A stretch of DNA of 64,000 nucleotides. Origin: Gemmatimonadales bacterium. Lineage in GTDB: Bacteria; Gemmatimonadota; Gemmatimonadetes; Gemmatimonadales; GWC2-71-9. The stretch covers positions 103,039 to 167,038 of the forward strand of contig JBFGJG010000002.1 of NCBI GenBank assembly GCA_041577295.1, given 5' to 3'. Under the pieces are notes generated by a model. It was not told the DNA's origin. It made no database searches and was given only the letters and a program-made list of their open reading frames with translations. Positions 1-45,614 of this stretch are shown one piece after another. Each line of letters opens with the position of its first letter. Positions within the stretch are counted from its first letter, which is position 1. Position numbers and translations under genes: made by a program.

Positions 1-201
1 CGCATCCAGACCGTTGAGCTCCGGCATGGAAATATCCATCAGCACGACATCCGGCCGCCGCGAGCTCACGAACGACACAGCGTCCCGTCCGTTGGCAACC
101 TCCCCAATCACCTCGATATCCCCTAGATCTTCCAACAACGCACGAAACCCGGAGCGCACGAGCTCGTGGTCCTCGGCCAGGAGCACGCGGACCTTCCTCA
201 T
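1..201 (-). CDS. NarL/LuxR-family response regulator, N-terminal receiver domain only (runs off the window edge)
   Basis: Reverse translation of 201..1 reads MRKVRVLLAEDHELVRSGFRALLEDLGDIEVIGEVANGRDAVSFVSSRRPDVVLMDISMPELNGLDA, a typical receiver domain. Its ATG overlaps the stop of the upstream kinase (ATGA at 198-201). Confidence 0.8.
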   Translation of the reverse strand, partial: MRKVRVLLAEDHELVRSGFRALLEDLGDIEVIGEVANGRDAVSFVSSRRPDVVLMDISMPELNGLDA

Positions 202-1574
202 ACTGTTCGGTGCGTTTCGCGGCGTTCCAGACGGTTGGCAGCATGTAAGGGGAGGCGGGCCCGAACGGTGGTCCCCTTCGTTGGTTCCGACTCGACCGAA
301 AAGACACCACCCACATTTTGTGCGCGCTCCCGCATACCGAGTAATCCGAGTTGGCGCGCTCCTTCACGAGATTCGCCGGCGAATCCAGCACCGTCGTCTC
401 GGACCGTGAGATCCAGGATGTTATTCGACTCGTGAAGCTCGACCTCTACTATGGATGCCCACGCATGTCGCACTACGTTGGTGAGTGCCTCCTGCAGGAT
501 GCGGAAGCAGGCTGTCTCAACGTCTTTGCGGATGCGGTCGTCAAAGCGGTCGACGCTGAGTCGGAGTTCGAACCCTGCCTTCGCCGCTTGGCGCCTCGCA
601 TAGGACCCGACCGCGACGGCGAGACCCAAGTCGTCGAGCAATGCGGGGCGAAGCTCGAAGGAAAGCGTTCGAACCTGCTCGATGGCTTGGTCGATTGCAG
701 TGATGCTCTCATTGATTTCCGCCGCGTGTCCGCTGGCGGAGCCCATGTGTTGAATGGCCTCGAGATTGAGCTTAACCGCAGTCAGCGCCTGACCGATCTG
801 GTCGTGCAACTCTCTCGCAATTCGGCTTCGTTCCAACTCCTGAATCTCCAGCAGCCGCCGAGAAAGGGCTTGCTGCTGTCCACGGGTGACCCGAAGAGCA
901 TCCTCGGCATGCTTCCGCTCCACGATACGGCCGAGAAGCGTTCCAATGTGACGACCAATGTCGATGAGGTCATCGTCTGGCGGCTCCGGCTCATGACCGT
1001 AAAACTCGAGCACGGCCACGACCTCGTCTCGGACCATGATGGGAAATGCAAAGCCCGCTTGCAGTCCAATCGCTGCAGCTTGTGCCGCACGCAAGAATTC
1101 CGGGTCGGACGACAGATTAACCTTCCAGACTGGGAGCCTTCGCTCGAGCGCAAGGCCTGGGAGACCACGGCCCACCTCGAACGCCATTTCCTCCGTTGCT
1201 CTGCGAAACGATTCATACCGTGGGGGATCGGCGAGATACCACGGACCGATCGGAACCAACCGTCCCACAGAACTGCGCTCGACGACAAACACATGGCCTA
1301 CAGGCCACCCTGTGTGCCCACAGACGCCTTCCAAAGCGATCCGCAAGGCCGCGGGTACGGAGGGTGCCTCGTTGGCGGCGACTGCGACGGTCTCGAGGAG
1401 TTTTACGAAACCGTGCTGGCGTTCGAACGCCGCATGCTGGCGGATGCGGAGCGCACGCTCCTCATCAGCCTGAGCTTGGAGGCGTTGCGTGAGATCTTCG
1501 AGATCAGCGACGCGTCGTTTGAGCTGCTCGAGCTGTCCCGCTGTCTCGAGGTTCACTTTCGATCCACCGCTCAT
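198..1574 (-). CDS. Cytoplasmic sensor histidine kinase: coiled-coil, GAF, HisKA_3, HATPase_c
   Basis: 458-aa ORF. H-box ELHDQIGQALTAVKLNLE (HisKA_3 type). ATP-lid motifs RDDGAGF and GLLGMRERA. GAF-like region in the N-terminal half. No TM segment seen. Translationally coupled to the NarL-type regulator. Confidence 0.85.
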   Translation of the reverse strand: MSGGSKVNLETAGQLEQLKRRVADLEDLTQRLQAQADEERALRIRQHAAFERQHGFVKLLETVAVAANEAPSVPAALRIALEGVCGHTGWPVGHVFVVERSSVGRLVPIGPWYLADPPRYESFRRATEEMAFEVGRGLPGLALERRLPVWKVNLSSDPEFLRAAQAAAIGLQAGFAFPIMVRDEVVAVLEFYGHEPEPPDDDLIDIGRHIGTLLGRIVERKHAEDALRVTRGQQQALSRRLLEIQELERSRIARELHDQIGQALTAVKLNLEAIQHMGSASGHAAEINESITAIDQAIEQVRTLSFELRPALLDDLGLAVAVGSYARRQAAKAGFELRLSVDRFDDRIRKDVETACFRILQEALTNVVRHAWASIVEVELHESNNILDLTVRDDGAGFAGESREGARQLGLLGMRERAQNVGGVFSVESEPTKGTTVRARLPLHAANRLERRETHRTV

Positions 1575-1769
1575 GAAACGTCACCCGGCGGGGCAAAGGC
1601 ATGGTTGCCACGCAAGAACGGTCACATGCGACCGGTCATCTGCAGTAGATTAGCGACGACCCCGCGTGGCTCACAACTCTCCAACACGGAAAGCTGGGCG
1701 TGATTGCCTCGTCGACGCGGTCTACGCGCACTGATCAGGCTGGCCGGGCTCTCGCGCCTAACCCTGACC

Positions 1770-2894
1770 TCACTCCGTGACCAGGCGTTGCGCGATGGCT
1801 CCCGCATCGTCTCGAGAACCGTGGAGAGCACTGTTCACCATGATCAGCTCCCCGACGTTCTCCAAGGTCAGCAGGCCGACCAGCATCCCTTGTCTCACGA
1901 CGGGGAGCGCCGAGCACTTGCCCTGACGCATTCGCGCCAGCGCACGCTCGAGCGATTCGTCTTCCCGCAGTACTTCGCAGTTGGGCCGCATCACGCGATC
2001 GACCCCGGTCTCCCGGCCGTGGCTCTTCAGGGCGCCCACCAACTCGCTCCGCATGAGCATGCCGGTCACCCGCCCCCGGTCGACCACTGGAAAATCCTGT
2101 TGGGAGCCCGCTAGCAACTCGTCGATCGCCTCTGCGAGCGTGCTGGTGGGCGTGAGCGCGCGAAATCGCGTCATCATGGCGTCGCCAACGGTCACCCCGC
2201 TGACGGCCGAGCGAAGCTGAACCTGTTGCGACTCGGCTTGGGCACCCAAAAAGACGAAGATGGCAATGAGCAGAAGAATTGGGTTTCCACCGAGCAAGCC
2301 AAAAAGACCGAACGCAATCGCCATGAATTGGCCGATGCCTGCGGCAATCTGCGTCGACCGTACATAGTCCAACTTCATTGCCAGGAGGGCTCGGAGGATG
2401 CGCCCGCCGTCCATGGGGAATGCGGGGAGCAAGTTGAAGCCAACAATCAGGATATTGAGCCAGGCAAGTTGCACGAGGAGGTTACCGCCGACCCTGGCGA
2501 GCGAGGTGATCGGACCCATCGCATCGGCAAGGACCAGCACAACGATCAGAACCCCGGCAATCACCACATTGACCGCGGGGCCGGCCACGGCAACCAGGAA
2601 CTCCTCGCTCGGCTTGTCCGGCATGCGCTCGAGCCTTGCCACCCCTCCAATTGGCAGGAGTGTAATGTCCCTCGTGCCCACGCCGAAGCGCTGCGCCGTC
2701 AGTGCGTGCCCGAGCTCATGCAGCACAACGCAGGTGAAGAGCGTTAGTACGAGTGCAATACCCAAAAGGACTTGCCGGACGTCAGCGCCGCTTCGGACGT
2801 GCATGAAGACGACCCAGCCGATCAAGATCAAGAATGTCCAGTGTACCTGGATAAGGATTCCCGAGACCCTACCCAGCTTCCACGACCAGTTCAT
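1770..2894 (-). CDS. M50 (site-2 protease family) zinc metalloprotease with a C-terminal CBS pair
   Basis: HEXXH in a TM helix (VLHELGHALTA). Second M50 motif NLLPAFPMDGGR. Multiple TM segments. C-terminal roughly 130 aa looks like a CBS pair (VTVGDAMMTRF...PVVDRGRVTGML...ALPVV). Confidence 0.85.
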   Translation of the reverse strand: MNWSWKLGRVSGILIQVHWTFLILIGWVVFMHVRSGADVRQVLLGIALVLTLFTCVVLHELGHALTAQRFGVGTRDITLLPIGGVARLERMPDKPSEEFLVAVAGPAVNVVIAGVLIVVLVLADAMGPITSLARVGGNLLVQLAWLNILIVGFNLLPAFPMDGGRILRALLAMKLDYVRSTQIAAGIGQFMAIAFGLFGLLGGNPILLLIAIFVFLGAQAESQQVQLRSAVSGVTVGDAMMTRFRALTPTSTLAEAIDELLAGSQQDFPVVDRGRVTGMLMRSELVGALKSHGRETGVDRVMRPNCEVLREDESLERALARMRQGKCSALPVVRQGMLVGLLTLENVGELIMVNSALHGSRDDAGAIAQRLVTE

Positions 2895-2996
2895 GCACGT
2901 CTCCCGGCCAAACCTTCGACAGCGCCTCGATATCAGACAAGCGCCTCTACAACGCCTCTATAAAGGTAGCGACGCTACGGGAACGTGAGAACGAAA

Positions 2997-3024
2997 CAGC
3001 CTCCGGGTGGGAAACCGGAGGCTG
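2997..3024 (-). terminator. Rho-independent-type terminator downstream of hsp20
   Basis: CAGCCTCCGG-tgggaaa-CCGGAGGCTG, a 10-bp perfect stem. On the minus strand it is followed by TTTCGTTCT. It lies 28 nt after the hsp20 stop. Confidence 0.5.
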
Positions 3025-3051
3025 CGTCCGCGCGCTCGGTCTAGCAGCCGC

Positions 3052-3492
3052 TCAATTGATCGTGACGCGGCTCTTGACGGCGGGTTCGGCCTTGGGGAGC
3101 CGTAGGGTGAGGATACCATCCTGGTAGGTCGCCAGGATCTTATCCGGATCTACGACTTTGGGGAGCCGCAGCGACCGGACGAACTTACCCTCCTCCCGTT
3201 CGCGCCAGATGTACTCCTCCGTCTCATGCTCCTTGCGGAATTCTCGCTTTCCGGAAACGGTGAGTACGTTTTGCTCGAGGGTCACATCCAAGTTTTCCTT
3301 GTGAACACCTGGCGCTTCGAGACGAACCACGAACTCCTTATCTGTCTCGGAGCAAGCGAGTGCCGGTGCCCATTCGGTCTCCACCAATGGAACCTCGAAC
3401 CGGCTAAACGGGAACTCGAAGAACCGGTCCAGCAGCTTGTCGAACTCCTGCCGCATGCGCGGAATGGGCGGTGCCGCTTTGGTGAGTTTCAC
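3052..3492 (-). CDS. Hsp20/alpha-crystallin small heat-shock protein
   Basis: Alpha-crystallin domain (WAPALACSETDKEFVVRLEAPGVHKENLDVTLEQNVLTVSGKRE...GKFVRSLRLP...A.YQDGILTLRLPK). I moved the start to GTG 3492 because AGGAGG lies 6 nt upstream. The tracked ORF start at 3576 adds an implausible Trp-rich leader. Confidence 0.85.
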   Translation of the reverse strand: MKLTKAAPPIPRMRQEFDKLLDRFFEFPFSRFEVPLVETEWAPALACSETDKEFVVRLEAPGVHKENLDVTLEQNVLTVSGKREFRKEHETEEYIWREREEGKFVRSLRLPKVVDPDKILATYQDGILTLRLPKAEPAVKSRVTIN

Positions 3493-3682
3493 ACGCCACC
3501 TCCTGCTGACATTGACCCTTTTTAGTGTATACCTCGTCCAGTGAAGCCACACTGAAACCCAGTTGAACCATCCCAACCAGCGTTAAGACTTCATTAAGGC
3601 TCCCTTCACTTGCCGCTCACTCCTTTCCGAGTACCGTCCACCCGCGATTGTGAACCGCGTCCAAGTCGCGGGAGGTAGTTTG

Positions 3683-4609
3683 ATGTCCGGAACCGAATGG
3701 AAGCCGGTTGTTGTTGGAGTCGACGTGTCTCCCGAAAGTGCGGGGGCAGCGGCGCTGGGGTGCAAAATCGCGGCGGCCGCGGGGACGACGTGTCATTTGG
3801 TTCACGGAACGCGGGCGGTCACCGCCATTCCTGTATCTCCTCCGCCGCTACCGGTCGATCCCGTTGCACTGACCAAACAGTTGACAGAGGCGGCCGGGCG
3901 AAAGGTCAAACAAGCGCTCGGGGGACATGCGCCGGCAGCGGCTCTCGAGAGTCTAGAGGTGCGACTCGGCAACGGGGCTTGGGCCCTGCGGCATTCGATT
4001 GAGGATCACGACGCCGGGCTCGTGGTCCTGGGCGGCAAGCACCACGCACCCCCCGCACGATGGCTGGGTGGCAGTACCGCCCATCACGCGGTCCGGATGA
4101 TCGACATTCCGCTTTTGATTAGTTGGTCTCCCCGGCAGACCATACGGCGGGTATTGGTGGCGGTAGATCTTTCCTATGCCGCGGCGCCGACCTTGGAGAC
4201 GGCAGTGCGCTACGCAGCGCTGTTTGACGCTGAGTTGCGCGCGCTCCATGTCGTAGAGGATCTCCCGTTCAGCGACGAGCTGCGGTTACCATTAGACCAT
4301 GACGCGTACCATGAGTTGTCGGCTGAACACTTCGACCGTATCATGGACGCACAATCACCCTCGCAGCGTACAGAGCGGGTCGTACGACCGGGCGAACCCG
4401 CTCGAGTGATCGCCGAGGAGAGCGCTCTCTACGATGCCGACCTGGTCGTGGTTGGCTCACATGGGAAGGGGTGGGTAGACCGACTCATGATCGGCAGCAC
4501 GACCGAGCGGCTGCTCAATCACCTCCCGACGTCGCTGTTGGTGGTCCAGGTCCGGGCCACAGAAGGCGATACCACTGCGTTGACGCTCGAGGCCGCTGCA
4601 AGCGCTTGA
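3683..4609 (+). CDS. Tandem universal stress protein (two UspA domains)
   Basis: Two USP repeats. The second carries the ATP-binding motif GSHGKGWVDRLMIGSTTERLL. Start set at ATG 3683, preceded by GGGAGG. Confidence 0.8.
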   Translation: MSGTEWKPVVVGVDVSPESAGAAALGCKIAAAAGTTCHLVHGTRAVTAIPVSPPPLPVDPVALTKQLTEAAGRKVKQALGGHAPAAALESLEVRLGNGAWALRHSIEDHDAGLVVLGGKHHAPPARWLGGSTAHHAVRMIDIPLLISWSPRQTIRRVLVAVDLSYAAAPTLETAVRYAALFDAELRALHVVEDLPFSDELRLPLDHDAYHELSAEHFDRIMDAQSPSQRTERVVRPGEPARVIAEESALYDADLVVVGSHGKGWVDRLMIGSTTERLLNHLPTSLLVVQVRATEGDTTALTLEAAASA

Positions 4610-4642
4610 TTCCATCGGGCAACAACCCAAACCGAGGTCCGT

Positions 4643-5044
4643 ATGAAAGTCGCCGAATTGATGCAAACCGATCTCAAGACCGCCTCCGATGACACCCTGG
4701 TGGGCGAGGCGGTGATCACGCTGTCGGACGCGCATGTGTCCGCACTGCCGGTCATCGATCGACGACAACGCTTAGTCGGCGTCCTTTCTACGACCGATAT
4801 CCTGCAAGCCGAAGCGGAGTGTGCCACACCCGAGGAGCGCGAGCGTCTGTTCCAAGAGACGACGGTCCGGGACATAATGACGCCCAAGCCTCAGACGGTG
4901 GAACCGGACGACGACGTCAAAGAAGTCGCACAACGCATGTTGTATCTCGAGGTCCACCGCCTCTTCGTGGTGTACGATGACGAGCTGGTGGGTGTCATCT
5001 CGCAGAGTGACATCGTCCGGGCAGTTGCCACGGCGAAGATCTGA
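4643..5044 (+). CDS. Stand-alone CBS-pair domain protein
   Basis: 133 aa made of two CBS repeats (VAELMQTDLKT...ALPVIDRRQRLVGVLSTTDIL and VRDIMTPKPQTV...HRLFVVYDDELVGVISQSDIV). Confidence 0.8.
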   Translation: MKVAELMQTDLKTASDDTLVGEAVITLSDAHVSALPVIDRRQRLVGVLSTTDILQAEAECATPEERERLFQETTVRDIMTPKPQTVEPDDDVKEVAQRMLYLEVHRLFVVYDDELVGVISQSDIVRAVATAKI

Positions 5045-5085
5045 TTGTCTATTAGTCCGATCAGGTTCCGACAAACGGAACGCCC

Positions 5086-5226
5086 ATGACGGATCCACAA
5101 CGTGACACTGGGGGACACCCGAGAGGCACGCTGGCAATCATCGCGTTGTACGGCGCGATCTTCGTGCTCGGGTGGCTCGGCTTCTTCTTCTTCGTGTTCT
5201 TGCCGCGCGGCGCCGTGACGCCGTAG
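5086..5226 (+). CDS. cbaD: Single-TM mini-protein resembling ba3 oxidase subunit IIa (not in the ORF track, 46 aa)
   Basis: ATG 5086 to TAG 5226 reads MTDPQRDTGGHPRGTLAIIALYGAIFVLGWLGFFFFVFLPRGAVTP. It has one hydrophobic helix ending in an RG-type motif. It sits directly upstream of subunit II, as does the 34-aa subunit IIa of the Thermus ba3 oxidase. Confidence 0.5.
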   Translation: MTDPQRDTGGHPRGTLAIIALYGAIFVLGWLGFFFFVFLPRGAVTP

Positions 5227-5233
5227 ACAACGA

Positions 5234-5710
5234 ATGCACGTCGATCTCTACGAGAAGATTTGGATGTGGGCCGCTGGCGTCATCATCGCCGTTTTCCTCG
5301 GCGCCATCGTGTTTTCCACGGTCTCCCAAGGTCGGATCCCGCCCAGCCATGTCGAGACCATCGACCCACAGGCCGTGTGGACAGACGAGCGGTTTGTTGA
5401 CCGGTCCGTTCGCACGCTCGCAGACGGAAGCGTGGAGGTCCGGATCATTGCGCTGATGTTCGCGTTTCAGCCGAGCGAGATCCGAGTTCCGGCCGGTCGT
5501 AAGGTCACCTTCCGCATCACCTCCAGCGATGTCGTGCATGGTTTTCAGATTGTTGGCACGAACGGGAATACCATGGTCGTCCCTGGATACGTCAGCCAGT
5601 TCTCGACAACGTTCGATTCGCCTGGAGAGTATTTGATCGTTTGCAATGAGTACTGCGGGCTCGGCCACCACGGCATGTTTGGAAAGCTCATTGTCGAGGG
5701 GACGCCTTGA
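5234..5710 (+). CDS. cbaB: Cytochrome c oxidase subunit II, ba3/B-family type (single TM plus cupredoxin CuA domain)
   Basis: CuA ligand motif HGFQI...CNEYCGLGHHGM. Short (158 aa) with one N-terminal TM helix. Its stop overlaps the subunit I start. Confidence 0.85.
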   Translation: MHVDLYEKIWMWAAGVIIAVFLGAIVFSTVSQGRIPPSHVETIDPQAVWTDERFVDRSVRTLADGSVEVRIIALMFAFQPSEIRVPAGRKVTFRITSSDVVHGFQIVGTNGNTMVVPGYVSQFSTTFDSPGEYLIVCNEYCGLGHHGMFGKLIVEGTP

Positions 5711-7329
5711 TCTATAACCGCCCGCTCGCCACCGCGAATATCGGTGTGGGGATCGCTGCGTTTGGCGTTGCCACGTTCATGGCATTCATGCAGGCTTTGT
5801 CGCGCGCCAACCTGGATCTGCCCTGGCGTACCGCAAAGATGTACTACCTATCCGTCACCGGGCACGGCGTGCTGATGGCCCTGGTGTTCACCACGTTTTT
5901 TATCATGGGCTTGGGCGTGGCGTTCACCACGCGTGCGTTGGGGCGGCCGCTCCGGTTCCCCCGTGTGGGTTGGATTTCCTTTTGGGTTGCGTTGATCGGC
6001 TCGCTCGGCGCGTTATGGGCGGTTTTTGCGGGCAAGGCGACAGTTCTCTACACGTTTTACCCTCCGCTGCAGGCGCATCCCGCCTTCTACCTCGGACTGA
6101 CGCTGCTCGTCGTGGGCTCGTGGATTTGGAGCGTGGTCATCCTCGCGACGTATGGGGCGTGGCGACGAGACAATCCGGAAACCCCGGTCCCGTTGGCCGT
6201 GCATGGAATCCTCGCAACCATTGTCGTCTGGCTCATCGCCACCGTCGGTGTCGCCGCCGAGATGCTACTCCAGTTGATCCCGTGGTCGCTCGGTCTCACC
6301 GACACGGTGGACCCGATGCTGGCACGTACCCTTTTCTGGTACTTCGGCCACCCGCTCGTCTACTTCTGGCTGATTCCCGCCTACGTCGTGTGGTACACCA
6401 TTCTTCCGAAAGTCGCCGGCGGACGACTGTTCAGCGATCCGCTCGCTCGGATGGTCTTTGTGCTGTTTATCGTGCTCTCGACCCCGGTAGGGTTCCATCA
6501 CCAGTTCATGGATCCGGGAGTCACCTCCGGCTGGAAGATGCTGCACACGTTCAACACGTTTGGGATTCTCTTTCCGAGTTTTGTGACCGCGTTCACCGTC
6601 GTAGCGTCACTGGAAGTGGCGGGTCGGCTTCGCGGCGCAGACGGCTGGTTCAATTGGCTCGGGAAGCTGCCCTGGGGGGACCCGCTGGTCTCGAGCGTCT
6701 TGCTGAGCATGTTGCTGTTCGCGATCGGTGGACTCGGAGGCGCCATCAACGCGGCCTATGGAATGAATGCCGTTGTACACAACACGGCGTGGATTCAGGG
6801 TCACTTTCATTTGACCGTCGGAACGGCGACCGCGCTCACATTCATGGGTGTGGCGTATTGGCTCGTGCCGCAACTCGTAGGCCGAGATCTGGAGCTGGGT
6901 TTGCTGGCAAAGGTGCAACCCTACCTCTGGTTTTTCGGGATGTTCCTGTTCTCCCTTGCGAATCACGCAACCGGCCTCATGGGGATGCCACGACGTGTCT
7001 ACGACGCGAGCTACGGTGGGAGTCCCGTGGCCGCGGAGTGGTCTGGACTCACACTCGTGTCGGCGGTTGGCGGGATTCTCTTGTTTGTGAGCGCTGCGTT
7101 CTTCCTTCTGGTGATGTTGGGCACGGTGCTGGCTGGCAGGCGCAACCCGCAGCCTGAACTCGAGTTCGCACAACCTCTCCAAGGTCACCCATCAAAGCGT
7201 GGCATTTGGGATCGTTTTGGTCTGTGGATCGGGATCGCTATCGTGCTCGTGGTCATCGCCTACGCATATCCAATCATCCAACACCTCCAGCTCGAACGCT
7301 TCGGCTCTCCCGGCTATCGGCTGTTCTGA
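5707..7329 (+). CDS. cbaA: Cytochrome c oxidase subunit I, B-family (ba3-type) heme-copper oxidase
   Basis: 540 aa with about 13 TM segments. Heme/CuB ligand regions are FWYFGHPLVYFWLIP, VGFHHQFMD and HNTAWIQGHFHLTVG. TTG start overlaps the subunit II stop. Confidence 0.9.
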   Translation: MIYNRPLATANIGVGIAAFGVATFMAFMQALSRANLDLPWRTAKMYYLSVTGHGVLMALVFTTFFIMGLGVAFTTRALGRPLRFPRVGWISFWVALIGSLGALWAVFAGKATVLYTFYPPLQAHPAFYLGLTLLVVGSWIWSVVILATYGAWRRDNPETPVPLAVHGILATIVVWLIATVGVAAEMLLQLIPWSLGLTDTVDPMLARTLFWYFGHPLVYFWLIPAYVVWYTILPKVAGGRLFSDPLARMVFVLFIVLSTPVGFHHQFMDPGVTSGWKMLHTFNTFGILFPSFVTAFTVVASLEVAGRLRGADGWFNWLGKLPWGDPLVSSVLLSMLLFAIGGLGGAINAAYGMNAVVHNTAWIQGHFHLTVGTATALTFMGVAYWLVPQLVGRDLELGLLAKVQPYLWFFGMFLFSLANHATGLMGMPRRVYDASYGGSPVAAEWSGLTLVSAVGGILLFVSAAFFLLVMLGTVLAGRRNPQPELEFAQPLQGHPSKRGIWDRFGLWIGIAIVLVVIAYAYPIIQHLQLERFGSPGYRLF

Positions 7330-7351: not shown

Positions 7352-8083
7352 TCACAGATACCTCTGAAACAACACCATCCCCACCATTGAGAGGCTCACC
7401 AGCAACGCAACCGTCCGGCCACGTGCCCGCTGGAAGGCCTCTGGCAGCAGTTCGACGAGCACCATGAACACCATGGCACCCGCCGCGAAGCCAATGCCGT
7501 ACGGAAGCGCCTCGCTGAATGCCTCGACAAACAAGAACGCCGGTACAGCCATGACCGGTTGCGGCAACGACGAGACGACGCTCCACCACGCGCAACCCAC
7601 GACCGATGTGCCACGCGGTCTCAGCACCGCGCTGATCGCGAGCCCCTCAGGGATGTTGTGTACGGCAATCGCGGCTGTGATCAGCACGGCGAGCGTCACC
7701 CCGCCGCCAAAGGCCACACCGATCGCAACGCCTTCCGCAAACGAGTGAGCGGTCATGACCACGACCATCAGGGCCATCTGCCGGGCTCCAGCACCCCTCG
7801 CCCGACCGAATTGCACGTCGGCGTTTCGCAGCAGGTGCTGCGTGACCAGGATGAAGGAAACACCTGCCATGGCTCCAATGACCGTTTGCACGCCCCCGTA
7901 CGTCGTCCCCTGAGCGACGAGTCCATAGCTCGCGCCAAGCATGAGTCCGGAGGCGATTGCGTTGGACGATGCGACGATGCGGCCCGATACCACTCGCACC
8001 AACGCAAAGGGAAGCGCACCGAGTCCGGTGGCCAAGGCGGTCGCGAGTCCATAGAGGAACACCACCAAGACAGACGCGCTCAC
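7352..8083 (-). CDS. ZIP-family divalent metal (Zn/Fe) transporter, ZupT-like, downstream paralog
   Basis: Multi-TM with ZIP signature AIAVHNIPEGLAIS and HSFAEGVAIG. GTG start overlaps the stop of the upstream ZIP gene (GTGA at 8080-8083). Confidence 0.8.
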   Translation of the reverse strand: MSASVLVVFLYGLATALATGLGALPFALVRVVSGRIVASSNAIASGLMLGASYGLVAQGTTYGGVQTVIGAMAGVSFILVTQHLLRNADVQFGRARGAGARQMALMVVVMTAHSFAEGVAIGVAFGGGVTLAVLITAAIAVHNIPEGLAISAVLRPRGTSVVGCAWWSVVSSLPQPVMAVPAFLFVEAFSEALPYGIGFAAGAMVFMVLVELLPEAFQRARGRTVALLVSLSMVGMVLFQRYL

Positions 8084-8802
8084 CAGCGGAGCCCACCCAA
8101 GAGAACGATGATTCCCAGACTCACGACCGTCACGAGGCCGATCGTGGTAGGCCCCGCATGACGGTAGGACTCGGGGAGCAAATCTGCCATGACGAGGTAC
8201 ACGAGGGTTCCCACCGCGAACCCCACCGCAAATGGTAGGATGCTTGGCGCAGCCTGGACGACGACAAAAACAAACACTGACAGGAAGACCTGACTGAGAT
8301 CGGTAACGACTGCGATGCCAGCCGCCTCGGGTCGTGAGTGGCCTCGCCCCGTGAAAACCGCGCCGAGCACAGCTGCTTCGGGGATGTTGTGGACCCCGAT
8401 CGCAAGTGCCACAAAGATGCCAAAGGACAAGTCGAGTGCCATGGCGACGCCGATTGCCACGCCCTCCGCGGCCGAGTGCAACGTGTTTCTCAGGAAAACC
8501 TGGTATCCGTAGGCTGGGCTACTCTCGGCGCGGTCTCCCTCCGCTGCCTCCCAGACAAGCTGAGTGAGAAACACGAATCCCACTCCCAAGGCAGCACCCA
8601 CCGCACCGCTCAATGGTTCACGATCGGCGCCGACATCCATCAAGGCATAGCCGGCACCGAGCATGAGACCGGCAGCGAGTGCGTTGGCCCAACCCAACCA
8701 CCGGGGCTGGCTTCGCCCGGGACTGAGCAATGGGAGCGCGCCCAACCCACCCATTCCGGCGGCGATGGTGGAGTAGGCGAGTACCGTGAGCGCTGGGTCC
8801 AC
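8080..8802 (-). CDS. ZIP-family divalent metal transporter, upstream paralog
   Basis: ZIP signature AIGVHNIPEAAVLG and HSAAEGVAIG. 240 aa, multi-TM. Confidence 0.8.
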   Translation of the reverse strand: MDPALTVLAYSTIAAGMGGLGALPLLSPGRSQPRWLGWANALAAGLMLGAGYALMDVGADREPLSGAVGAALGVGFVFLTQLVWEAAEGDRAESSPAYGYQVFLRNTLHSAAEGVAIGVAMALDLSFGIFVALAIGVHNIPEAAVLGAVFTGRGHSRPEAAGIAVVTDLSQVFLSVFVFVVVQAAPSILPFAVGFAVGTLVYLVMADLLPESYRHAGPTTIGLVTVVSLGIIVLLGGLRW

Positions 8803-8974: not shown

Positions 8975-10384
8975 ATGTCAGACATGCGTAAGACGAAGGC
9001 CGAGCTCCATGACGAGCTCGCCGCCCTCCGGAAGAGGATACGCGATCTCGAGTCGGACGCCGGGCACCAGGGTGGACGTTCATTGCAGACTTCTCGAGAC
9101 GAGGATGCAACGAATACCGCCCGCCTTCGCTTGCTCGAAGACGCAGCCCAGGTTGCGCAAACGGCTCGCGACACGCTATGGCGTCGAGTCGAAAGCTTGT
9201 GCAGTGCCGCAATTGGTATCACGGCGCAACACGACCTGGCACGGGTACTTCAGGAGGTCGCTGATTCCGCGCGCGAGGTGATTGGGGCACGCTACGCGGC
9301 TCTGGGGGTGCTCGATGCCGCGGGACTGGAGCTCGACCCGTTCATCGTCAGCGGTGTGACTGAAGAGGAATACCGGCAAATCGGTGACCCACCCAAGGGT
9401 AAAGGAATCCTCGGGGTCCTCATCGACGACCCGCGGCCGCTTCGCCTCAAGAACATCAGGCAACACGCCAAGTCCTACGGCTTTCCGTCCAACCATCCGT
9501 CGATGCACTCCTTCCTGGGTGTGCCGATCTTCGGTCGCACCAAGCCTATCGGCAATTTGTACCTCACCGAAAAGATCGGCGCGGAGGAATTCTCGCGCGA
9601 AGACGAGGCGTTAGCCGTCATGTTGGCCGCTCACGCAGCCGTCGCCGTGGAGAACGCCCGTCTCTACGAAGAGCGCGAGGCCCTACTCGAGGAGCTGCGC
9701 GGACTTCAAACGTCACGTGATCGTTTCTTTGCGATGATAAACCACGAGCTTCGCAACGCGATCACTGCGGTGCACGGGTGGACCGAGCTTTGGTTGCGGA
9801 AAGCGGGAAGCAATCCACCGCGGGCTGCCCGCGAGGTCAGCGAATCGGCCGAGCGCGCAGTGACGCTTCTCGAAGACATGCTCGATCTCAGCCGGCTCGA
9901 TGCGTCAAAGCTCGAGCCAAGAGTCGAAGAGGCGGACGCCGCCGAGGTCGTGCGGGAAGCAGTGGCTGCGCTCGAGCCCGTAGCCGAGCGGCGCCGGGTG
10001 GTCATCGAGACCGCTGGCATCAACGGTGTTTTGCCGTGCCGCACCGATCCGCTACGCATCCGACAGATTCTGATCAACCTCCTCAGCAACGCGGTGCGTC
10101 ACAGCCCCGAGGGCGAGCAAGTCACCCTGCGGGTGTTGGGTGACGACCGCTCGATGCGGTTCGAGGTGATCGACCGGGGAGACGGGATTCCCCAGGAGCA
10201 GCAAGGGCGAATCTTCGAGGCGTTCGAGCGCGCTGGCACAGATTCCGAACGCGGCACCGGCCTTGGGCTTACGCTGTCCAAGAAGCTCGCCCAGTTGCTG
10301 GGCGGTGATCTGTCGGTCACGAGCCAGCCGGGCGCGGGCGCTCGGTTCACGCTCGAAGTGCAACGCTACTTGACCCGATCATGA
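8975..10384 (+). CDS. Soluble sensor histidine kinase: coiled-coil, GAF, HisKA, HATPase_c (no cognate regulator directly coupled)
   Basis: GAF-like region (LQEVADSAREVIGARYAALGVLD...FLGVPI...IGNLYLTEK). H-box FFAMINHELRNAITAV. ATPase motifs NLLSNAVRHSP, DRGDGIP and GTGLGLTLS. Confidence 0.8.
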   Translation: MSDMRKTKAELHDELAALRKRIRDLESDAGHQGGRSLQTSRDEDATNTARLRLLEDAAQVAQTARDTLWRRVESLCSAAIGITAQHDLARVLQEVADSAREVIGARYAALGVLDAAGLELDPFIVSGVTEEEYRQIGDPPKGKGILGVLIDDPRPLRLKNIRQHAKSYGFPSNHPSMHSFLGVPIFGRTKPIGNLYLTEKIGAEEFSREDEALAVMLAAHAAVAVENARLYEEREALLEELRGLQTSRDRFFAMINHELRNAITAVHGWTELWLRKAGSNPPRAAREVSESAERAVTLLEDMLDLSRLDASKLEPRVEEADAAEVVREAVAALEPVAERRRVVIETAGINGVLPCRTDPLRIRQILINLLSNAVRHSPEGEQVTLRVLGDDRSMRFEVIDRGDGIPQEQQGRIFEAFERAGTDSERGTGLGLTLSKKLAQLLGGDLSVTSQPGAGARFTLEVQRYLTRS

Positions 10385-10442
10385 GGATTCGTTCACAGTC
10401 GCTTCAGCCACCCATAAACGGACCCCGAATAGTCTTCACACT

Positions 10443-11129
10443 ATGAGAATTCTAGTGGTGGAAGACGACCGTAAGGTCGCTGGTTTCATTGAGATGGGCC
10501 TCCGTGAGGAGGGGTACGCCGTCGATGTCGCAAAGGATGGGGAGGAGGCAGCAACCCTCGCCCATGTCAATGACTACGACGCAATCCTACTCGACCTGAT
10601 GCTCCCCAAGAAGAACGGGCTTCAAGTCGCCTCCGAACTGCGTCGGGAGGGCCGACGGACCCCGATCCTCATGCTGACGGCCAGGGATGCCACGGAAGAC
10701 GTGGTGCGGGGGTTGGATGCGGGCGCGGACGATTACTTGACCAAGCCGTTCAAGTTCGATGAGCTGCTGGCAAGAGTCCGTGCGCTGGTACGCCGTGGCG
10801 GGGCGGCTCGCCTCGAGCGCGTGAGCTATGGCCCGCTCGAGCTCGACCGTCTGAAGCACAAGGTCTTTGCCAATGGCCGCGGGCTTGAACTCACGCCGCG
10901 GGAGTTCCAGCTACTCGAACACTTCATGCTCCACCCGGAGATCGTCGTCCGGCGCACGGAGCTGCTCGAGAAGGTGTGGGACATGCACTTCGACCCCGAG
11001 AGCAACGTGGTTGACGTGCACATCGGCAACCTGCGACGTAAGCTGCGCGACGCCGGGCATGATAGGCTGATCCACACGGTGCGTGGAGTAGGTTTTCAAC
11101 TGAAGGTACAGGACACGAACGGAGGGTAA
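10443..11129 (+). CDS. OmpR/PhoB-family response regulator (receiver plus winged helix)
   Basis: MRILVVEDD...ILLDLMLP...ADDYLTKPF receiver domain. C-terminal winged helix LTPREFQLLEHF...VRGVGF. Confidence 0.9.
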   Translation: MRILVVEDDRKVAGFIEMGLREEGYAVDVAKDGEEAATLAHVNDYDAILLDLMLPKKNGLQVASELRREGRRTPILMLTARDATEDVVRGLDAGADDYLTKPFKFDELLARVRALVRRGGAARLERVSYGPLELDRLKHKVFANGRGLELTPREFQLLEHFMLHPEIVVRRTELLEKVWDMHFDPESNVVDVHIGNLRRKLRDAGHDRLIHTVRGVGFQLKVQDTNGG

Positions 11130-12511
11130 TGCGTTCCCTTCGCCGCACGCTTGCCGTGCGGTTCTGCATCACCGTTTTCTTTGCGCTCCTCCTCATCGCG
11201 CTGTGGGCCCATTTGGGTGCACGGCGTATTCTGTTGCGGGAGCTGGACCGGGGTCTTGCCGCTGCCTCGGAGCTCGAGGCAGACGTGCTGGCGGCCGGAC
11301 ACCAGATACCGCGACACGTAGAAAGCCCTGATTTGCCCGTGTTCGTTCGCACCGTGAACCGCTTCGTGGTGGTCCGGGCTCCGGACGGCACGATGCTGGC
11401 TTCCAACACCGCGCTCGCACACGATCTCCCGTTTGACGAGGAAGGTCTTCGCAGGGCACAACAAGGTGAGCGCGTCTGGGTTAGCCAAACCTGGAACGGA
11501 ATCAAGATCCGATCGATCTACGCCCCCAGGGGCCATGGTTCAGCGAGCGGCAGCATCATTCAGGTCTCGGCATCCCTAGCACCGATCCGCACCGCCAATC
11601 GCGAGATTCTCTTTCTCATGCTCGGCACCGTGTTGTTGGGTACCGTGGCGACGACCATTGGCGCCGCATGGCTCGCGGGGTCTGCGATGCTACCCGTATT
11701 CGAGATTGCTGAGCAAGCTGAGAACATCAAAGCGGGAACAGTGGGGCAGCGCATCACCGTCCACGGGGACGTCGCGGAGTTACAGGGGCTGACGACCGTG
11801 CTCAACAGCATGCTCGCGCGCCTCGATCAGGTGGTCGCGTCGCAACGTCGCATGATCTCCGACGCCGGTCACGACTTGCGCACGCCCATCACGGCCATGC
11901 GTGGAGAGATCGAGGTCGCCCTCCGCGGTGAGCGGACTCCGGCAACGTATAAGGAGATCCTCGCGAGTGTCATGGAGGAGGTGCAGCGCCTCGAATCGAT
12001 AAGCGAATCGTTGGTTCTCCTGGCGAGAATAGACTCCGGTGCGCTGGCGCCTAATCGGATCGCGACCCCGCTCCAGCCGTTGCTGGAGCAAGCGGTACAT
12101 CGGGCAGAGCCACGGGCAAACGGGCGGCGGATCTCACTGCGCGAGCAAGAGGGCGAGCCCACAGCAGATGTGGACGAGCACATGTTCGCCTTGGTCCTCG
12201 ACCACCTGTTGGACAACTCGCTGCGTCACACACCAGACGGGACCACGGTCAGCCTCGGGGCCTTCAAACGCAAGCACCACGTCGACATCACCATCGAAGA
12301 TGACGGGCCCGGAATTCCGGAGGATCGCCTCCCCCATCTCTTCGAACGGTTCTATAGAGATGATTCGGCTCGCACCCGCACCGCCGGTGCTGGCCTGGGG
12401 CTGTCGATCGCCTGGGCAATCGTACAGGCACATGACGGAACGATCGAGGCACGCTTGGGACAGCAGGGAGGTCTCCTGATCACCATATCCCTCCCACACC
12501 ACGAGTCGTAG
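11129..12511 (+). CDS. Membrane sensor histidine kinase (2 TM, periplasmic loop, HAMP, HisKA, HATPase_c), partner of the OmpR-type regulator
   Basis: ATG overlaps the regulator stop. H-box MISDAGHDLRTPITAMRGE. ATPase motifs DNSLRHTP, DDGPGIP and GAGLGLSIA. Confidence 0.85.
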   Translation: MRSLRRTLAVRFCITVFFALLLIALWAHLGARRILLRELDRGLAAASELEADVLAAGHQIPRHVESPDLPVFVRTVNRFVVVRAPDGTMLASNTALAHDLPFDEEGLRRAQQGERVWVSQTWNGIKIRSIYAPRGHGSASGSIIQVSASLAPIRTANREILFLMLGTVLLGTVATTIGAAWLAGSAMLPVFEIAEQAENIKAGTVGQRITVHGDVAELQGLTTVLNSMLARLDQVVASQRRMISDAGHDLRTPITAMRGEIEVALRGERTPATYKEILASVMEEVQRLESISESLVLLARIDSGALAPNRIATPLQPLLEQAVHRAEPRANGRRISLREQEGEPTADVDEHMFALVLDHLLDNSLRHTPDGTTVSLGAFKRKHHVDITIEDDGPGIPEDRLPHLFERFYRDDSARTRTAGAGLGLSIAWAIVQAHDGTIEARLGQQGGLLITISLPHHES

Positions 12512-12613
12512 CCGCAGTCATTCTTCACCTCGCATTCCAGAATTGTTCACACCCCGCGGTGATCTTGGTGAGACGCGACGATCGCCGAGGAAGTTTCGAA
12601 GCTAGGTGACGGA

Positions 12614-12820: not shown

Positions 12821-12940
12821 CAGCCAGCAAGTCTGGCGCTGGATGGCCATTCGTATCTAACTTGCGTGCCGCGTACCAAGGAACACCGTGAGCCGGCGTT
12901 CACCGGGACCGGCTCTCACCGCTCAGACAGGAGAAGGACG

Positions 12941-13339
12941 GTGAGGTATTTCGTCATCACACTCAGCATGACGCTGGCTGCGAGCGTCGCGGCTTCCACA
13001 CCTGCTGGCGCGCAGGAGACCGCCGGCAAGCTCCCAGCTGGGGTCACCCAGGAGATGATCTCGCAAGGCGCGTCGGTGTTCACCGGGGCAGGAATCTGTG
13101 CAGCTTGTCACGGACCTGAAGCTAAGGGAATTCCTAATCTCGGCGCCGACCTCACGGACGATAAGTGGGTCCATAGCGACGGCAGTTACGAGGGGATCCT
13201 CGAGACTATCAAGAACGGTGTAGCACCTGCGAAGTCCACAACAGGTGCTGCCATGCCCCCCAAAGGCGGCAGCAACATCTCCGAGGAGCAAATGAAGTCC
13301 GTGGCAGCGTACGTTTGGCGTCTGTGGAATCGGAAATAG
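12941..13339 (+). CDS. Periplasmic monoheme class I c-type cytochrome
   Basis: Signal peptide VRYFVITLSMTLAASVAASTPAGAQE. Heme motif CAACHG. Distal Met region (GAAMPPKGG). Start set at GTG 12941, preceded by GGAGAAGGA. Confidence 0.75.
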   Translation: MRYFVITLSMTLAASVAASTPAGAQETAGKLPAGVTQEMISQGASVFTGAGICAACHGPEAKGIPNLGADLTDDKWVHSDGSYEGILETIKNGVAPAKSTTGAAMPPKGGSNISEEQMKSVAAYVWRLWNRK

Positions 13340-13539
13340 CGACTTGCGCGATCTGTTACGGTCGCGCGGCGTTGTCGTCACTCTGTTGTTACACTTCCCC
13401 CCTAGACTGAATTGCGTGCCGGATAACACTCGAGGAAGTCGGGAACCGCATCGACGCTAATCGTACCGGCGCCTAAGCAAGCACAAGCAACGAGGCCAGT
13501 CATTCGGGACTCGCCGAATGCTGGTTGAAGGGAGAGGTG

Positions 13540-14643: not shown

Positions 14644-14789
14644 GCCCGTTAAGCCGCCTTCATAAACCGGCCACACCGGCTTCATAAACGCCCCGCATAA
14701 TTCCACGAGGTTTGTGTGGGGTGGCTCGTATTGTCCCTTGTTGACGGCCTCCGCACCGCATTCGCCGCATCAACTGGAGTTGTCAAGCG

Positions 14790-15221
14790 ATGGACAGTCG
14801 ACTGTTTGCTTGTGTACTGCTCGCGACCATCACCGGTGCTGGTTGTACTGGCAATGCTGAGATGGGAAATGCGCAAGAGCGGAGCGGCGACGAGGGCGCA
14901 CGCTCTGCTGTTGCGGCGGAAGCACCGCCAAGCGGGCCCGTAAACCAGGAGATGGTGCAAAGAGGTGCACAGCTCTTTCAATCGAAGGGCTGCATTGGTT
15001 GCCACACTATTGGTAAGGGTCGCTTGACGGGACCAGATCTATCAGGTGTGACCGAGCGTCGAGATTACACCTGGATCATGGCCATGGTGATCAACCCCGA
15101 TTCCATGCTCAAAAACGACGCGACGGCACGAAAACTCCTTGCTGAGTACATGACCCCTATGATGAATGTTGGCGTGACGCGGGAAGAGGCACGCGCAATC
15201 TACGAGTACCTCCGTCAATAG
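14790..15221 (+). CDS. Lipoprotein-type monoheme c-type cytochrome, likely electron donor to NosZ
   Basis: Lipobox LLATITGAGC. Heme motif CIGCHT. 64 nt upstream of nosZ on the same strand. Confidence 0.75.
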   Translation: MDSRLFACVLLATITGAGCTGNAEMGNAQERSGDEGARSAVAAEAPPSGPVNQEMVQRGAQLFQSKGCIGCHTIGKGRLTGPDLSGVTERRDYTWIMAMVINPDSMLKNDATARKLLAEYMTPMMNVGVTREEARAIYEYLRQ

Positions 15222-15285
15222 TACGGAGGGGGTTCGGCTGCCTTGGCGTGGCGTGACGGCACCCCATCACAACGGAGTAATCTCA

Positions 15286-17247: not shown

Positions 17248-17258
17248 CAGCGGCGGCT

Positions 17259-17324: not shown

Positions 17325-17347
17325 TCGCTAGCGAGATACTACACGAC

Positions 17348-31578: not shown

Positions 31579-31582
31579 GAAA

Positions 31583-32200: not shown

Positions 32201-32203
32201 GGG

Positions 32204-33025: not shown

Positions 33026-33026
33026 T

Positions 33027-36702: not shown

Positions 36703-36712
36703 CCGCGAGCGC

Positions 36713-43846: not shown

Positions 43847-44054
43847 GGCACACCTCCCAGGCTCCTGCTGGTGCCATCAAATAATGAGTAAGGGCTCGTG
43901 AAGGCGCCGTGAAGGGGCTCGCAACACCCACTCAAACCGCTTACTGAACCTTTTTTCACACACCTTTTGCCTTGTTCACCAGGTTGCCCAGCTACACATA
44001 ATTTGGGCCGCGCCCTGAGCGCGCGCACCCTGCTTCTTCCAGAGAGAGCTGTCG

Positions 44055-44957
44055 ATGCACAAGGCAATCATGGTACCACTCGATGGGTCGAGGTTCGGTG
44101 AGGAGGCGCTTCCGATCGCGGTGCGCCTGGCCAAGGACCTGGACCGGTCTATTGAGCTCGTTTCGGTGTTCGAGGACGAACCGCCGGTTGCTACCTGGGT
44201 GCTGACCGCTGCCGAGATGCGGTCGCTCCTCGATGAGTACTTAGAGACACTAGGCAACCAGATCAGGGAATCCGCCTGCGTTGAGGTGACTCGATCGGTG
44301 CTCAGTGGTCCGGTGACAATGAGTCTCGAGGCGCATGCCAAAGAAAAGGATCCGGAACTGATCGTCATGTCTACGCACGGACGGGGTGCGGTCAGTCGTG
44401 CATGGCTCGGCAGCGTGGCGGATCACGTCACCCGACACGTGTCGATGCCGGTGTTACTGGTCCGCCCCGACGAGGATCCGGGTGAAGTCCAGTTCGAGGG
44501 TAGTCCGCCCTTCGAGCACGTGCTCGTGCCGCTGGATGGGTCGGACCGAGCAGAAGCAAGCCTTGCATGGTCAACGCGAATCGCACTGGCCCACAAGAGC
44601 AAGCTCACCGTGCTCAGCGTTGTGCCGCCCCCACCGGTGCTCACGTCGCCGTACTTGCCCGATGTGATAGCCGAATCCAAGGAAGGATTGGAGAGGGGGC
44701 AACGTGAAGCTGAGCAGTACTTGAATGACATCGCCGTCCGACTCGAAAAGGAGGGAGTCTCGATCGGCACGGTGGTACGTGTCGGTATCGCACCGGCGTC
44801 TGGGATCAATCGATACGCCCTAGATCACGGGGTGGACCTCATCGTGATCAGCACCCACGGGCGGGGAGGGCTTCCCCGCTTGTTGCTCGGCAGCGTAGCG
44901 GACAAGGTGGTGCGCGGAGCTACTGCACCGGTTCTGGTCACTCGACCGAGGGGCTAA
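44055..44957 (+). CDS. Tandem universal stress protein (two UspA domains)
   Basis: Two repeats, each with an ATP motif: STHGRGAVSRAWLGSVADHV and STHGRGGLPRLLLGSVADKV. Confidence 0.85.
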   Translation: MHKAIMVPLDGSRFGEEALPIAVRLAKDLDRSIELVSVFEDEPPVATWVLTAAEMRSLLDEYLETLGNQIRESACVEVTRSVLSGPVTMSLEAHAKEKDPELIVMSTHGRGAVSRAWLGSVADHVTRHVSMPVLLVRPDEDPGEVQFEGSPPFEHVLVPLDGSDRAEASLAWSTRIALAHKSKLTVLSVVPPPPVLTSPYLPDVIAESKEGLERGQREAEQYLNDIAVRLEKEGVSIGTVVRVGIAPASGINRYALDHGVDLIVISTHGRGGLPRLLLGSVADKVVRGATAPVLVTRPRG

Positions 44958-45481: not shown

Positions 45482-45614
45482 GAGAAGGCGCTCACTCAAT
45501 CTCTCGAACCCCTTCCACCAGCCCTCCTCAGATCATTCACCAAAGGTTCACCGTCGATTCATCGCGAGGTCGTGAAACTTCATAATACCAAAGAGACTGA
45601 GCCGTGCATGACCA

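Follow-up and report, generated by a model that had tools for sequence, protein, structure and literature searches.

The window analysed here is a stretch of 64,000 nucleotides (nt) from a Gemmatimonadales bacterium of the phylum Gemmatimonadota (contig JBFGJG010000002.1 of assembly GCA_041577295.1, positions 103,039 to 167,038 of the forward strand). Its first part encodes a NarL-type regulator beside a soluble GAF/HisKA_3 kinase, an M50 protease with a C-terminal pair of CBS domains (M50-CBS), the small heat-shock protein (sHSP) Hsp20, a tandem universal stress protein (USP), a stand-alone CBS-pair protein, and three subunits of a terminal oxidase. These are followed by two ZIP permeases, a second soluble kinase, an OmpR-family regulator, a membrane HAMP kinase, and a cytochrome c (Table 1). 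In Mycobacterium tuberculosis, the DosR regulon includes Rv2623 (a tandem USP), hspX (an sHSP), Rv2626c (a CBS protein), and Rv2625c (an M50-CBS protease). The original prediction, made from the first 7,329 nt, took the GAF/HisKA_3 kinase and its NarL-type partner for counterparts of DevS/DosT and DevR. All nine gene architectures that it described are present where it placed them in the open reading frame (ORF) listing, and every one of them was confirmed by Pfam. Close homologues whose source is named also point to Gemmatimonadota. With moderate confidence, the region is read here as part of a Gemmatimonadota low-oxygen/respiratory-stress regulon whose sensor would be the DosT-like kinase encoded at 8975-10384, rather than the GAF/HisKA_3-NarL pair.

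The predicted oxidase operon and its conserved neighbours

By sequence, the oxidase is of the B-family (ba3) haem-copper type, because subunit I matches the Thermus enzyme far above A-family enzymes: among solved structures, COX1 scores 416 bits (~1e-124) with Thermus ba3 versus ~68 bits (~1e-17) with the A-family. Subunit II, of 158 amino acids (aa), contains the CuA motif CNEYCGLGHHGM. The Pfam match of subunit IIa is weak (16.9 bits versus a gathering score of 20.7); its gene is kept 5' of COX2 in most of 80 related loci, a metagenomic sample anchored on ba3 subunit I (68-79% identity) in which neighbours were assigned by phmmer. The B-family class of oxidases has been described as high-affinity (PMC9104464). 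The genes for USP, the CBS pair, IIa, II, and I are separated by successive gaps of 33, 41, 7, and -4 bp with no intergenic terminators, and thus, they probably constitute one operon, usp-cbs-cbaDBA, of which usp is the first gene. On the other strand, the likely start codon of hsp20 is the GTG after AGGAGGTGG.

Table 1. Features of the window, numbered from its first nucleotide
Feature	Position	Strand	Basis
NarL/GerE-type response regulator, N-terminal receiver, cut by the window edge	1..201	-	Pfam Response_reg 2e-14
Soluble GAF_2+HisKA_3+HATPase_c kinase	198..1574	-	Pfam
M50 site-2 protease with C-terminal CBS pair	1770..2894	-	Pfam Peptidase_M50 and two CBS
Terminator-like hairpin after hsp20	2996..3025	-	11-bp stem, then T-rich tail; hairpin also in L002
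Hsp20 small heat-shock protein	3052..3492	-	Pfam HSP20 1.3e-25
Putative operator array 1, TGAAG-N6-TGAAA-N6-TGAAC, towards usp	3541..3569	+	PWM 22.2, best of the window
Putative operator array 2, TGAGC/TGAAG/TTAAT/TTAAC, 11-bp period, towards hsp20, convergent with array 1	3581..3620	-	PWM 17.0, 12.1
Tandem USP	3683..4609	+	Pfam Usp x2
Stand-alone CBS-pair protein	4643..5044	+	Pfam CBS x2, 1.5e-28
ba3 oxidase subunit IIa	5086..5226	+	Weak Pfam CoxIIa match; kept 5' of COX2 in related loci
ba3 oxidase subunit II (CuA)	5234..5710	+	Pfam COX2; CuA motif readable in sequence
ba3 (B-family) oxidase subunit I	5707..7329	+	COX1; PDB matches to Thermus ba3
Two ZIP-family metal permeases	7352..8802	-	Pfam Zip
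DosS/DosT-type haem-GAF sensor kinase, HisKA transmitter	8975..10384	+	PDB matches to GAF-A; Pfam HisKA
Putative operator array between sensor kinase and regulator genes	10379..10418	-	PWM 14.8, 13.3
OmpR/PhoB-family response regulator (Asp51)	10443..11129	+	Pfam Response_reg 6.8e-31, Trans_reg_C 1.1e-27
Membrane HAMP-HisKA kinase, ~125-aa periplasmic loop	11129..12511	+	Pfam
Putative operator array past the HAMP kinase gene, ~320 nt 5' of the cytochrome c gene	12511..12550	-	PWM 17.7
Mono-haem c-type cytochrome	12866..13339	+	Pfam Cytochrome_CBB3 2.6e-12
Putative operator array, phosphoribosyltransferase/USP2 divergent promoter (second island)	43887..43926	+	PWM 13.9, 12.3
Second tandem USP (USP2)	44055..44957	+	Pfam Usp x2, 2.3e-56
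Putative operator array, four repeats, 5' of ORF 44954-45499(-)	45523..45562	-	PWM 20.4

The stress proteins resemble their mycobacterial counterparts in architecture. The best PDB matches of M50-CBS are MjS2P (3b4r, 8.6e-46) and then SpoIVFB (1e-11), and its motifs HELGH (H59, E60, H63) and NxxPxxPMDGG (N154-D162) are invariant in the family alignment, which identifies it by sequence as a site-2 protease of the MjS2P/SpoIVFB type with a C-terminal CBS pair. Orthologues of Hsp20 that are 78-87% identical occupy the equivalent position in the related contigs L002, L003, and L090. The tandem USP aligns over its full length with the structures of Rv2623 (3cis/2jax) at 3e-8, no better than with single-domain USPs, and the ATP motif G-2x-G-9x-G-S/T can be read in the C-terminal domain only (GSHGKGWVDRLMIGST). 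None of the 58 PDB matches of the CBS pair (E<=1e-3) is Rv2626c; the best are MJ1225 and CBSX1. Because the CBS protein lacks a match to Rv2626c and the USP is no nearer to Rv2623 than to other USPs, these proteins are, as judged by such comparisons, analogous architectures, not demonstrated orthologues. The likeness to the DosR regulon is one of architecture and finds no support at the level of orthology.

Just 5' of the M50-CBS gene (2922-2960, minus strand) lie three direct repeats of T[AC]GAGGCG[CT] whose starts are 11 and 19 bp apart; the window contains 9 matches to this pattern versus 3.7 expected, and three of them fall here. As a conserved M50 promoter element the pattern was rejected, since it is not kept in L002, L003, L090, or L092. 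The corresponding region of L090 (9840-9960) has instead a large inverted arrangement of ATTGCA(A/G)ATTGGCG-type repeats, unrelated either to the repeats of the window or to the TGAA operator described below.

The genes of this first island stay linked in contigs that have diverged to 57-88% protein identity, and thus, their clustering is not due to chance. In L003 (proteins 67-88% identical), the arrangement is ZIP-ZIP / COX1-COX2-IIa-CBS-USP / Hsp20 / M50-CBS / kinase / NarL regulator. L090 (57-78% identical) has CBS-USP / Hsp20 and, farther along, M50-CBS, kinase, and regulator in that order, with PAS domains preceding the same GAF. L092 keeps ZIP-ZIP, CBS-USP, and M50-CBS and lacks the oxidase and Hsp20, and the HisKA_3/NarL pair that follows its M50 gene is non-orthologous. 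L002, L003, and L090 all preserve the succession M50-CBS, HisKA_3 kinase, NarL regulator. Among 80 M50-CBS loci sampled from many phyla, ~13 have a USP gene nearby, 2 have Hsp20, and none has an orthologue of the NarL pair. The whole cluster is specific to one Gemmatimonadota lineage, and M50-CBS beside a USP is a wider, looser association. Next to its orthologous CBS-USP-Hsp20 genes, L090 also carries a second B-family oxidase (1-1760), convergent with them, with only 43% identity in subunit I, which suggests either that a B-type oxidase joined the stress cluster independently or that one was replaced there.

Gene order was counted in the 36 ba3-anchored loci that have at least 4.6 kb of upstream sequence. 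The order found in the window, USP, CBS, IIa, II, I, occurs in 11 of them. Two ZIP genes come next in most of these USP-first (arrangement-A) loci, between COX1 and the sensor kinase, and the GAF-HisKA kinase, OmpR regulator, and HAMP kinase lie downstream wherever the contig reaches. Another 22 of the 36 have a co-directional series of DosT-like kinase, OmpR regulator, HAMP kinase, IIa, II, and I (Pfam-confirmed in L154); in these sensor-first loci, the array is bordered by USP and CBS genes, and the distance from the preceding gene to the start of IIa is often 10-40 nt. Orthologues in related genomes are thus linked and not scattered, and the earlier proposal of a cluster tied to the terminal oxidase is supported by this conserved linkage to a B-family enzyme.

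Two soluble sensor kinases

The genuine DosS/DosT-type haem-GAF sensor of the cluster, by sequence comparison, is the 8975-10384 kinase, which lies outside the region covered by the original prediction. Its residues 86-233 match GAF-A of DevS (2y8h/2w3d) at 5e-37 and 131 bits and GAF-A of DosT (2vzw) at 1e-36. In DosS, His149 serves as the proximal ligand of the haem, and ligand discrimination requires Tyr171 (PMC4082495). The proximal position, in FPPYHPPM of DosS, aligns with His174 in FPSNHPSM, and the distal tyrosine, in GTLYLTDK of DosS, aligns with Tyr196 in GNLYLTEK. Gly111 of the window kinase corresponds to Glu87 of DosS and to Gly85 of DosT, and so is DosT-like; Gly or Ala at DosS position 87 has been reported to permit a stable oxy complex, as in DosT (PMC4082495). 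In 121 homologues (at least 60% identical, except for one outlier at 39%), His174 and Tyr196 are invariant, and position 111 is Gly in 105 and Ala in 16. By analogy, this GAF would bind haem and sense O2, NO, or CO.

The DosT-like GAF family is large: at E<=1e-30 it has 1,407 cluster representatives. In 70 shorter representatives, too, the His and Tyr do not vary; 31 of these 70 have HisKA_3, the transmitter of DevS and DosT, and 20 (~29%) have HisKA, as in the window. The window kinase consists of one GAF and HisKA (PF00512), with His257 as its predicted phospho-acceptor, and not of tandem GAF-A/GAF-B with HisKA_3. Some members of the family are giant proteins, 2,000-3,800 aa long, in which the domain is repeated in tandem 10-18 times (P0364, P0371, P0385, and others).

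In the related loci, the DosT-like kinase gene is always found next to an OmpR-type regulator gene. The nearest NCBIfam model of this regulator is a heavy-metal regulator (CopR-type; 235 bits versus a cut-off of 279.2), and that of the HAMP kinase is a heavy-metal kinase of the CusS/CopS type (239 bits versus 292.55). The HAMP kinase may add a periplasmic, possibly metal, input. The cytochrome c gene that follows (12866-13339) encodes a candidate electron donor to the oxidase.

The GAF/HisKA_3 kinase at 198-1574 is a different protein. Phmmer matches to PDB fall on its transmitter (VraS, DesK, and then the ATPase domains of DosT/DevS), and GAF-A of DevS/DosT was never returned for its GAF. A 16-sequence profile of this GAF matched the GAFs of PDE, PtsP, Nlh, NreA, and NifA, with DevS/DosT absent even at E<=10. 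In Foldseek searches with an AlphaFold model (pLDDT 93), the nearest folds were the GAFs of Nlh2, PtsP, Lcd1, and fRMsr, not those of DevS/DosT. HisKA_3 is present, but there is a single, non-DosT GAF where DosS and DosT have GAF-A and GAF-B. The database copy of the protein starts 6 residues later than the window version, and only four close relatives were found in 5.8 billion proteins. Residues ~56-232 belong to a distinct, widespread GAF subfamily of PAS-rich kinases, found for example in Nitrospina gracilis, with an invariant Cys and Trp in VCxxTGWPVGH; these residues suggest a thiol- or ligand-based signal.

Its partner is cut by the window edge. In contigs L001 and L086, which are 99-100% identical to the window, the full regulator is a 217-aa protein with Response_reg and GerE domains, beyond which come a CheY-like regulator, an RR-HD-GYP protein, and large PAS proteins. 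The best PDB matches of the regulator are VraR (1e-43), then NarL and DesR, and then DevR (4e-30). When the DNA-binding domain was compared on its own, using the C-terminus of the L003 orthologue, DosR ranked 36th of 40 PDB matches; the domain is nearer to EsrB, SsrB, GerE, VraR, and FixJ. Taken together, these sequence and fold comparisons indicate that the pair is an architectural look-alike of DevS/DevR only. The GAF is generic by profile and by fold, and the DNA-binding domain is not DosR-like.

TGAA direct repeats and the wider window

Alignment of 32 non-redundant loci revealed a conserved block 5' of the DosT-like kinase gene, [CT]TGAAG-N6-CTGAAC-N6-GGTGAG, which matches the sole conserved intergenic block of the hsp20/usp spacer in the window. 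K-mer counting on the kinase upstream regions was swamped by GC-rich background, and it was the alignment that exposed the motif. A position weight matrix (PWM) of the 7-nt half-site was built from 11 promoters of other contigs. Scoring it in triplets with an 11-bp period gave hits in the window at five places, every one of them non-coding, with the convergent arrays 1 and 2 taken as one place. There are 9 hits scoring at least 12, versus 1.7 in Markov simulations, and 4 intergenic clusters versus 0.14 expected, a number that 0 of 300 intergenic shuffles reached. Cluster density per 100 kb is 13.4 in ba3-anchored Gemmatimonadota loci versus 0.2 in loci from other phyla. In 63 loci not used for training, a period of 11 gives 55 clusters, whereas periods of 8-10, 12-14, 21, and 22 give 0-10.

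The arrays have similar positions in related genomes. Array 2 is the only block conserved among the hsp20/usp intergenic regions of the window, L003, and L090, and sites equivalent to array 1 lie 5' of USP in loci outside the training set. In these loci generally, sites are found directly 5' of USP genes and also before CBS, Hsp20, kinase, and regulator genes. The site between the kinase and regulator genes is present at the matching position in nearly all related loci, and sites comparable to 12511-12550 lie beyond the kinase genes in L097, L100, L101, L104, L106, and L110. The operator precedes M50-CBS where that gene is divergent from USP (L097, L102, L112, and L007); in L007, the USP2 orthologue has an operator-bearing divergent promoter in common with M50-CBS. 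ORF 44954-45499(-), next to the four-repeat array, gave no match in Pfam or NCBIfam searches. Given the 11-bp tandem geometry and the autoregulatory position of one array, the OmpR regulator (10443-11129) is the proposed binder of the operator.

Part of what the original prediction expected is therefore present, in another form. A shared operator exists, with phased repeats, and it links the first island to the second, the gene group around USP2; the DosR palindrome does not. The DosR box GGGAC-N4-GTCCC, allowing up to 2 mismatches, has 36 matches in the window versus 55 expected and none in the intergenic regions of the cluster, and the OsdR-form box GGGCC-N4-GGCCC is likewise absent from those regions. 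An ungapped search for shared 10-20-mers in the eight intergenic regions originally suggested for motif discovery found nothing beyond shuffles, which was a false negative: the real element contains gaps and is degenerate. No conserved motif was found 5' of the HisKA_3 kinase or M50 genes.

Several other elements were considered and rejected. The inverted repeat CCTTAA-N7-TTAAGG in the Hsp20/USP block occurs only once in the window and is better read as part of an 11-bp array. An RNA element in the hsp20 leader is not indicated, with no Rfam match, a fold z of -1.26, and a weak consensus structure (-4.2 kcal/mol). The Rex operator is TTGTGAA-N4-TTCACAA (PMC2883068); the sites described here are 11-bp direct repeats and not an 18-bp palindrome.

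Elsewhere in the second island, 42567-43148 (minus strand) encodes an S30AE ribosome hibernation domain fused to a cold-shock-like C-terminus (below the Pfam gathering score). The gene adjoins those for a Na/Ca exchanger and a type-II (Ca-type) P-type ATPase, and the operator PWM has no hit directly 5' of it. Directly 3' of the sensor genes is a nitrous-oxide reductase (nos) cluster (13525-21019), comprising a phosphate-selective-type porin, a cytochrome c (14790-15221), NosZ (15253-17247; nos_propeller and cupredoxin), an ORF without assigned family, NosD, an ABC ATPase, and an ABC-2 permease. Only a weak match to the TGAA pattern precedes it (14659-14684, 2 mismatches). A complete-looking kynurenine/3-hydroxyanthranilate pathway cluster (29690-37243) encodes an aldehyde dehydrogenase, RidA, a cyclase-type formamidase, tryptophan 2,3-dioxygenase, an FAD monooxygenase, kynureninase, an ACMSD-type amidohydrolase, and 3-HAO. 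Two tRNA genes, at 58781-58852 (-) and 59609-59682 (+), are the only Rfam hits of the window at gathering level.

Regulatory model and related systems

In the favoured model, ferrous haem would be held by His174 of the DosT-like kinase, and haem-bound O2, hydrogen-bonded by Tyr196, would hold the kinase inactive; at the open Gly111 position the likeness is to DosT, not to DosS. A fall in O2, or the binding of NO or CO, would lead to autophosphorylation on His257, and the phosphate would then move to Asp51 of the adjacent OmpR-family regulator. The CusS/CopS-like HAMP kinase would feed a second, periplasmic signal into the same regulator. Once phosphorylated, the regulator would bind the arrays of TGAA-type half-sites spaced 11 bp apart and activate hsp20, usp-cbs-cbaDBA, the cytochrome c gene, its own operon, the second tandem USP gene, and ORF 44954-45499. 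By analogy with the mycobacterial sensors, low oxygen would switch the regulon on. M50-CBS and the GAF/HisKA_3-NarL pair would form a neighbouring signalling module, syntenic with the regulon and operator-free in this genome.

Several observations weigh against this model. The operator is absent 5' of M50-CBS and of the HisKA_3 kinase in a PWM scan of the window, L001, and L002, and because no operator lies 5' of them in the window, M50-CBS and the NarL pair may not be co-regulated here with the operator-bearing genes. The orientation of sites relative to their targets varies, with the arrays at 10379-10418 and 12511-12550 pointing away from the genes that lie downstream. The assignment of the operator to the OmpR regulator comes from co-occurrence and the 11-bp direct-repeat geometry only. 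Several of the related contigs are close kin, so that the counts given above are not fully independent. Finally, since the models nearest to the regulator and the HAMP kinase are heavy-metal ones, albeit below their cut-offs, the main signal could be copper.

This last point can be extended into a copper or metal regulon, in which the OmpR regulator and HAMP kinase would be a CusRS/CopRS-like pair tuning ba3, perhaps NosZ, and the ZIPs, with the haem-GAF kinase as a secondary modulator only and the stress proteins riding along. The heavy-metal family matches, the pair of ZIP permeases between oxidase and sensor genes in USP-first loci, and the nos cluster 2 kb downstream speak for such a regulon. 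Yet both scores are under the family cut-offs, the ZIP genes have no operator hit and the nos genes have only the weak pattern match before them, and it is the USP genes, unrelated to metals, that are the strongest targets and the most widely kept. The DosT-like kinase is, moreover, as constant a partner as the HAMP kinase, and on balance a metal regulon seems unlikely. The TGAA arrays could also be real but bound by a factor encoded elsewhere, such as another winged-helix regulator or a nucleoid protein, with the two-component genes among its targets. Such a factor would fit the heterogeneous orientation of the sites, and the OmpR regulator has been assigned by association only. On the other hand, practically every sufficiently long locus has both the operator and the OmpR gene, a site always lies directly before the regulator gene, as is typical of autoregulation, and the strict 11-bp phasing fits tandem binding of the OmpR/PhoB type; a binder encoded elsewhere is given a small chance.

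The scheme first proposed, in which the GAF/HisKA_3 kinase and NarL regulator act as DevS/DevR and control M50-CBS, hsp20, usp, cbs, and ba3 through a DosR-like palindrome, draws on a domain architecture that does fit DevS/DevR and on a gene order, M50-CBS, kinase, NarL regulator, that L002, L003, and L090 preserve (the pair in L092 being non-orthologous). This scheme has a very slim chance of being correct: the GAF is not DevS/DosT-like by profile or fold, the DNA-binding domain is not DosR-like, the DosR box is neither enriched nor present in the intergenic regions of the cluster, and neither a conserved motif nor the shared operator is found 5' of the kinase or M50. That there is no common regulation at all, the island being a mosaic of common stress genes assembled by drift or co-transfer, is highly improbable in view of the shared phased operator and the operon-like spacing. 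The content of the island does vary by lineage, with Hsp20 absent in most loci, M50 at variable distances, and ba3 absent in L092, and only ~13 of the 80 loci sampled across phyla link M50-CBS to USP.

A regulon sensed by the DosT-like kinase would share much with the DosS(DevS)/DosT-DosR(DevR) system of M. tuberculosis. The sensor domain of the 8975-10384 kinase is homologous to the haem-binding GAF-A, with the His and Tyr conserved, two kinases seem to converge on one regulator, and a tandem USP, an sHSP, and a CBS protein are among the predicted targets, with an M50-CBS protease encoded close by. There are also clear differences. The window sensor has a single GAF and HisKA, not HisKA_3; its partner is of the OmpR family, not the NarL family; the second kinase is a membrane HAMP protein and not a paralogous haem sensor; and the operator consists of 11-bp-phased TGAA direct repeats instead of the GGGAC-N4-GTCCC palindrome. 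In addition, the predicted targets include the ba3 oxidase and a cytochrome c, and the phylum is Gemmatimonadota. In the body of papers searched, none mentions DosR and Gemmatimonadota together.

Other systems offer partial parallels. OsdK/OsdR of Streptomyces coelicolor also has USP and respiratory genes clustered around a two-component system, with autoregulation and a defined operator (PMC5069765). However, OsdR, a DevR orthologue, binds the palindrome AGGGCCGATCGGCCCT (PMC5069765), which was not found in the window cluster, and the regulator families differ. The lxa locus of Burkholderia cenocepacia is analogous in being a clustered, non-actinobacterial locus with several USPs; low oxygen induces it, and persistence under anoxia depends on it, whereas Burkholderia lacks B- and C-class oxidases (PMC9104464). 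lxa was defined by expression data, whereas the window regulon is predicted from sequence. The arrays resemble the tandem-box promoters of PhoB/OmpR-type regulators in having half-sites every 11 bp close 5' of a -10-like element, and the regulator has the Trans_reg_C winged helix. They differ in the half-site, TGAA(G/C), and in often being convergent pairs, and binding here is predicted only. The oxidase genes have the three-subunit IIa-II-I organisation of the Thermus thermophilus ba3 genes (cbaDBA), but in the window they are preceded by USP and CBS genes in the predicted operon, and in sister lineages by the sensor genes.

Almost all work on DosS/DosT sensors concerns their role in mycobacterial dormancy. 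In the window, their haem-sensor domain is combined with another class of kinase and another family of regulator, and the host phylum is one that is abundant in soil and sediment but has been little studied. The predicted regulon (ba3 oxidase, cytochrome c, USPs, CBS protein, and sHSP) is testable, with a clearly defined operator. It raises the questions of how aerobic Gemmatimonadota cope with oxygen swings, how a gas-sensing module is transplanted between signalling chassis, and whether the content of dormancy regulons is ancestral or convergent. One tentative answer is that the DosT-type haem-GAF together with USP, CBS, sHSP, and M50-CBS constitutes an old, cross-phylum hypoxia-survival module whose output may have been rewired, to HisKA_3, NarL, and a palindrome in Actinobacteria, and to HisKA, OmpR, and phased repeats directly driving ba3 in Gemmatimonadota. 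If so, a second phylum would now have a defined operator and, by association, a candidate regulator, and the dormancy regulon of M. tuberculosis would have descended, as one specialised form, from an environmental programme that is widespread.

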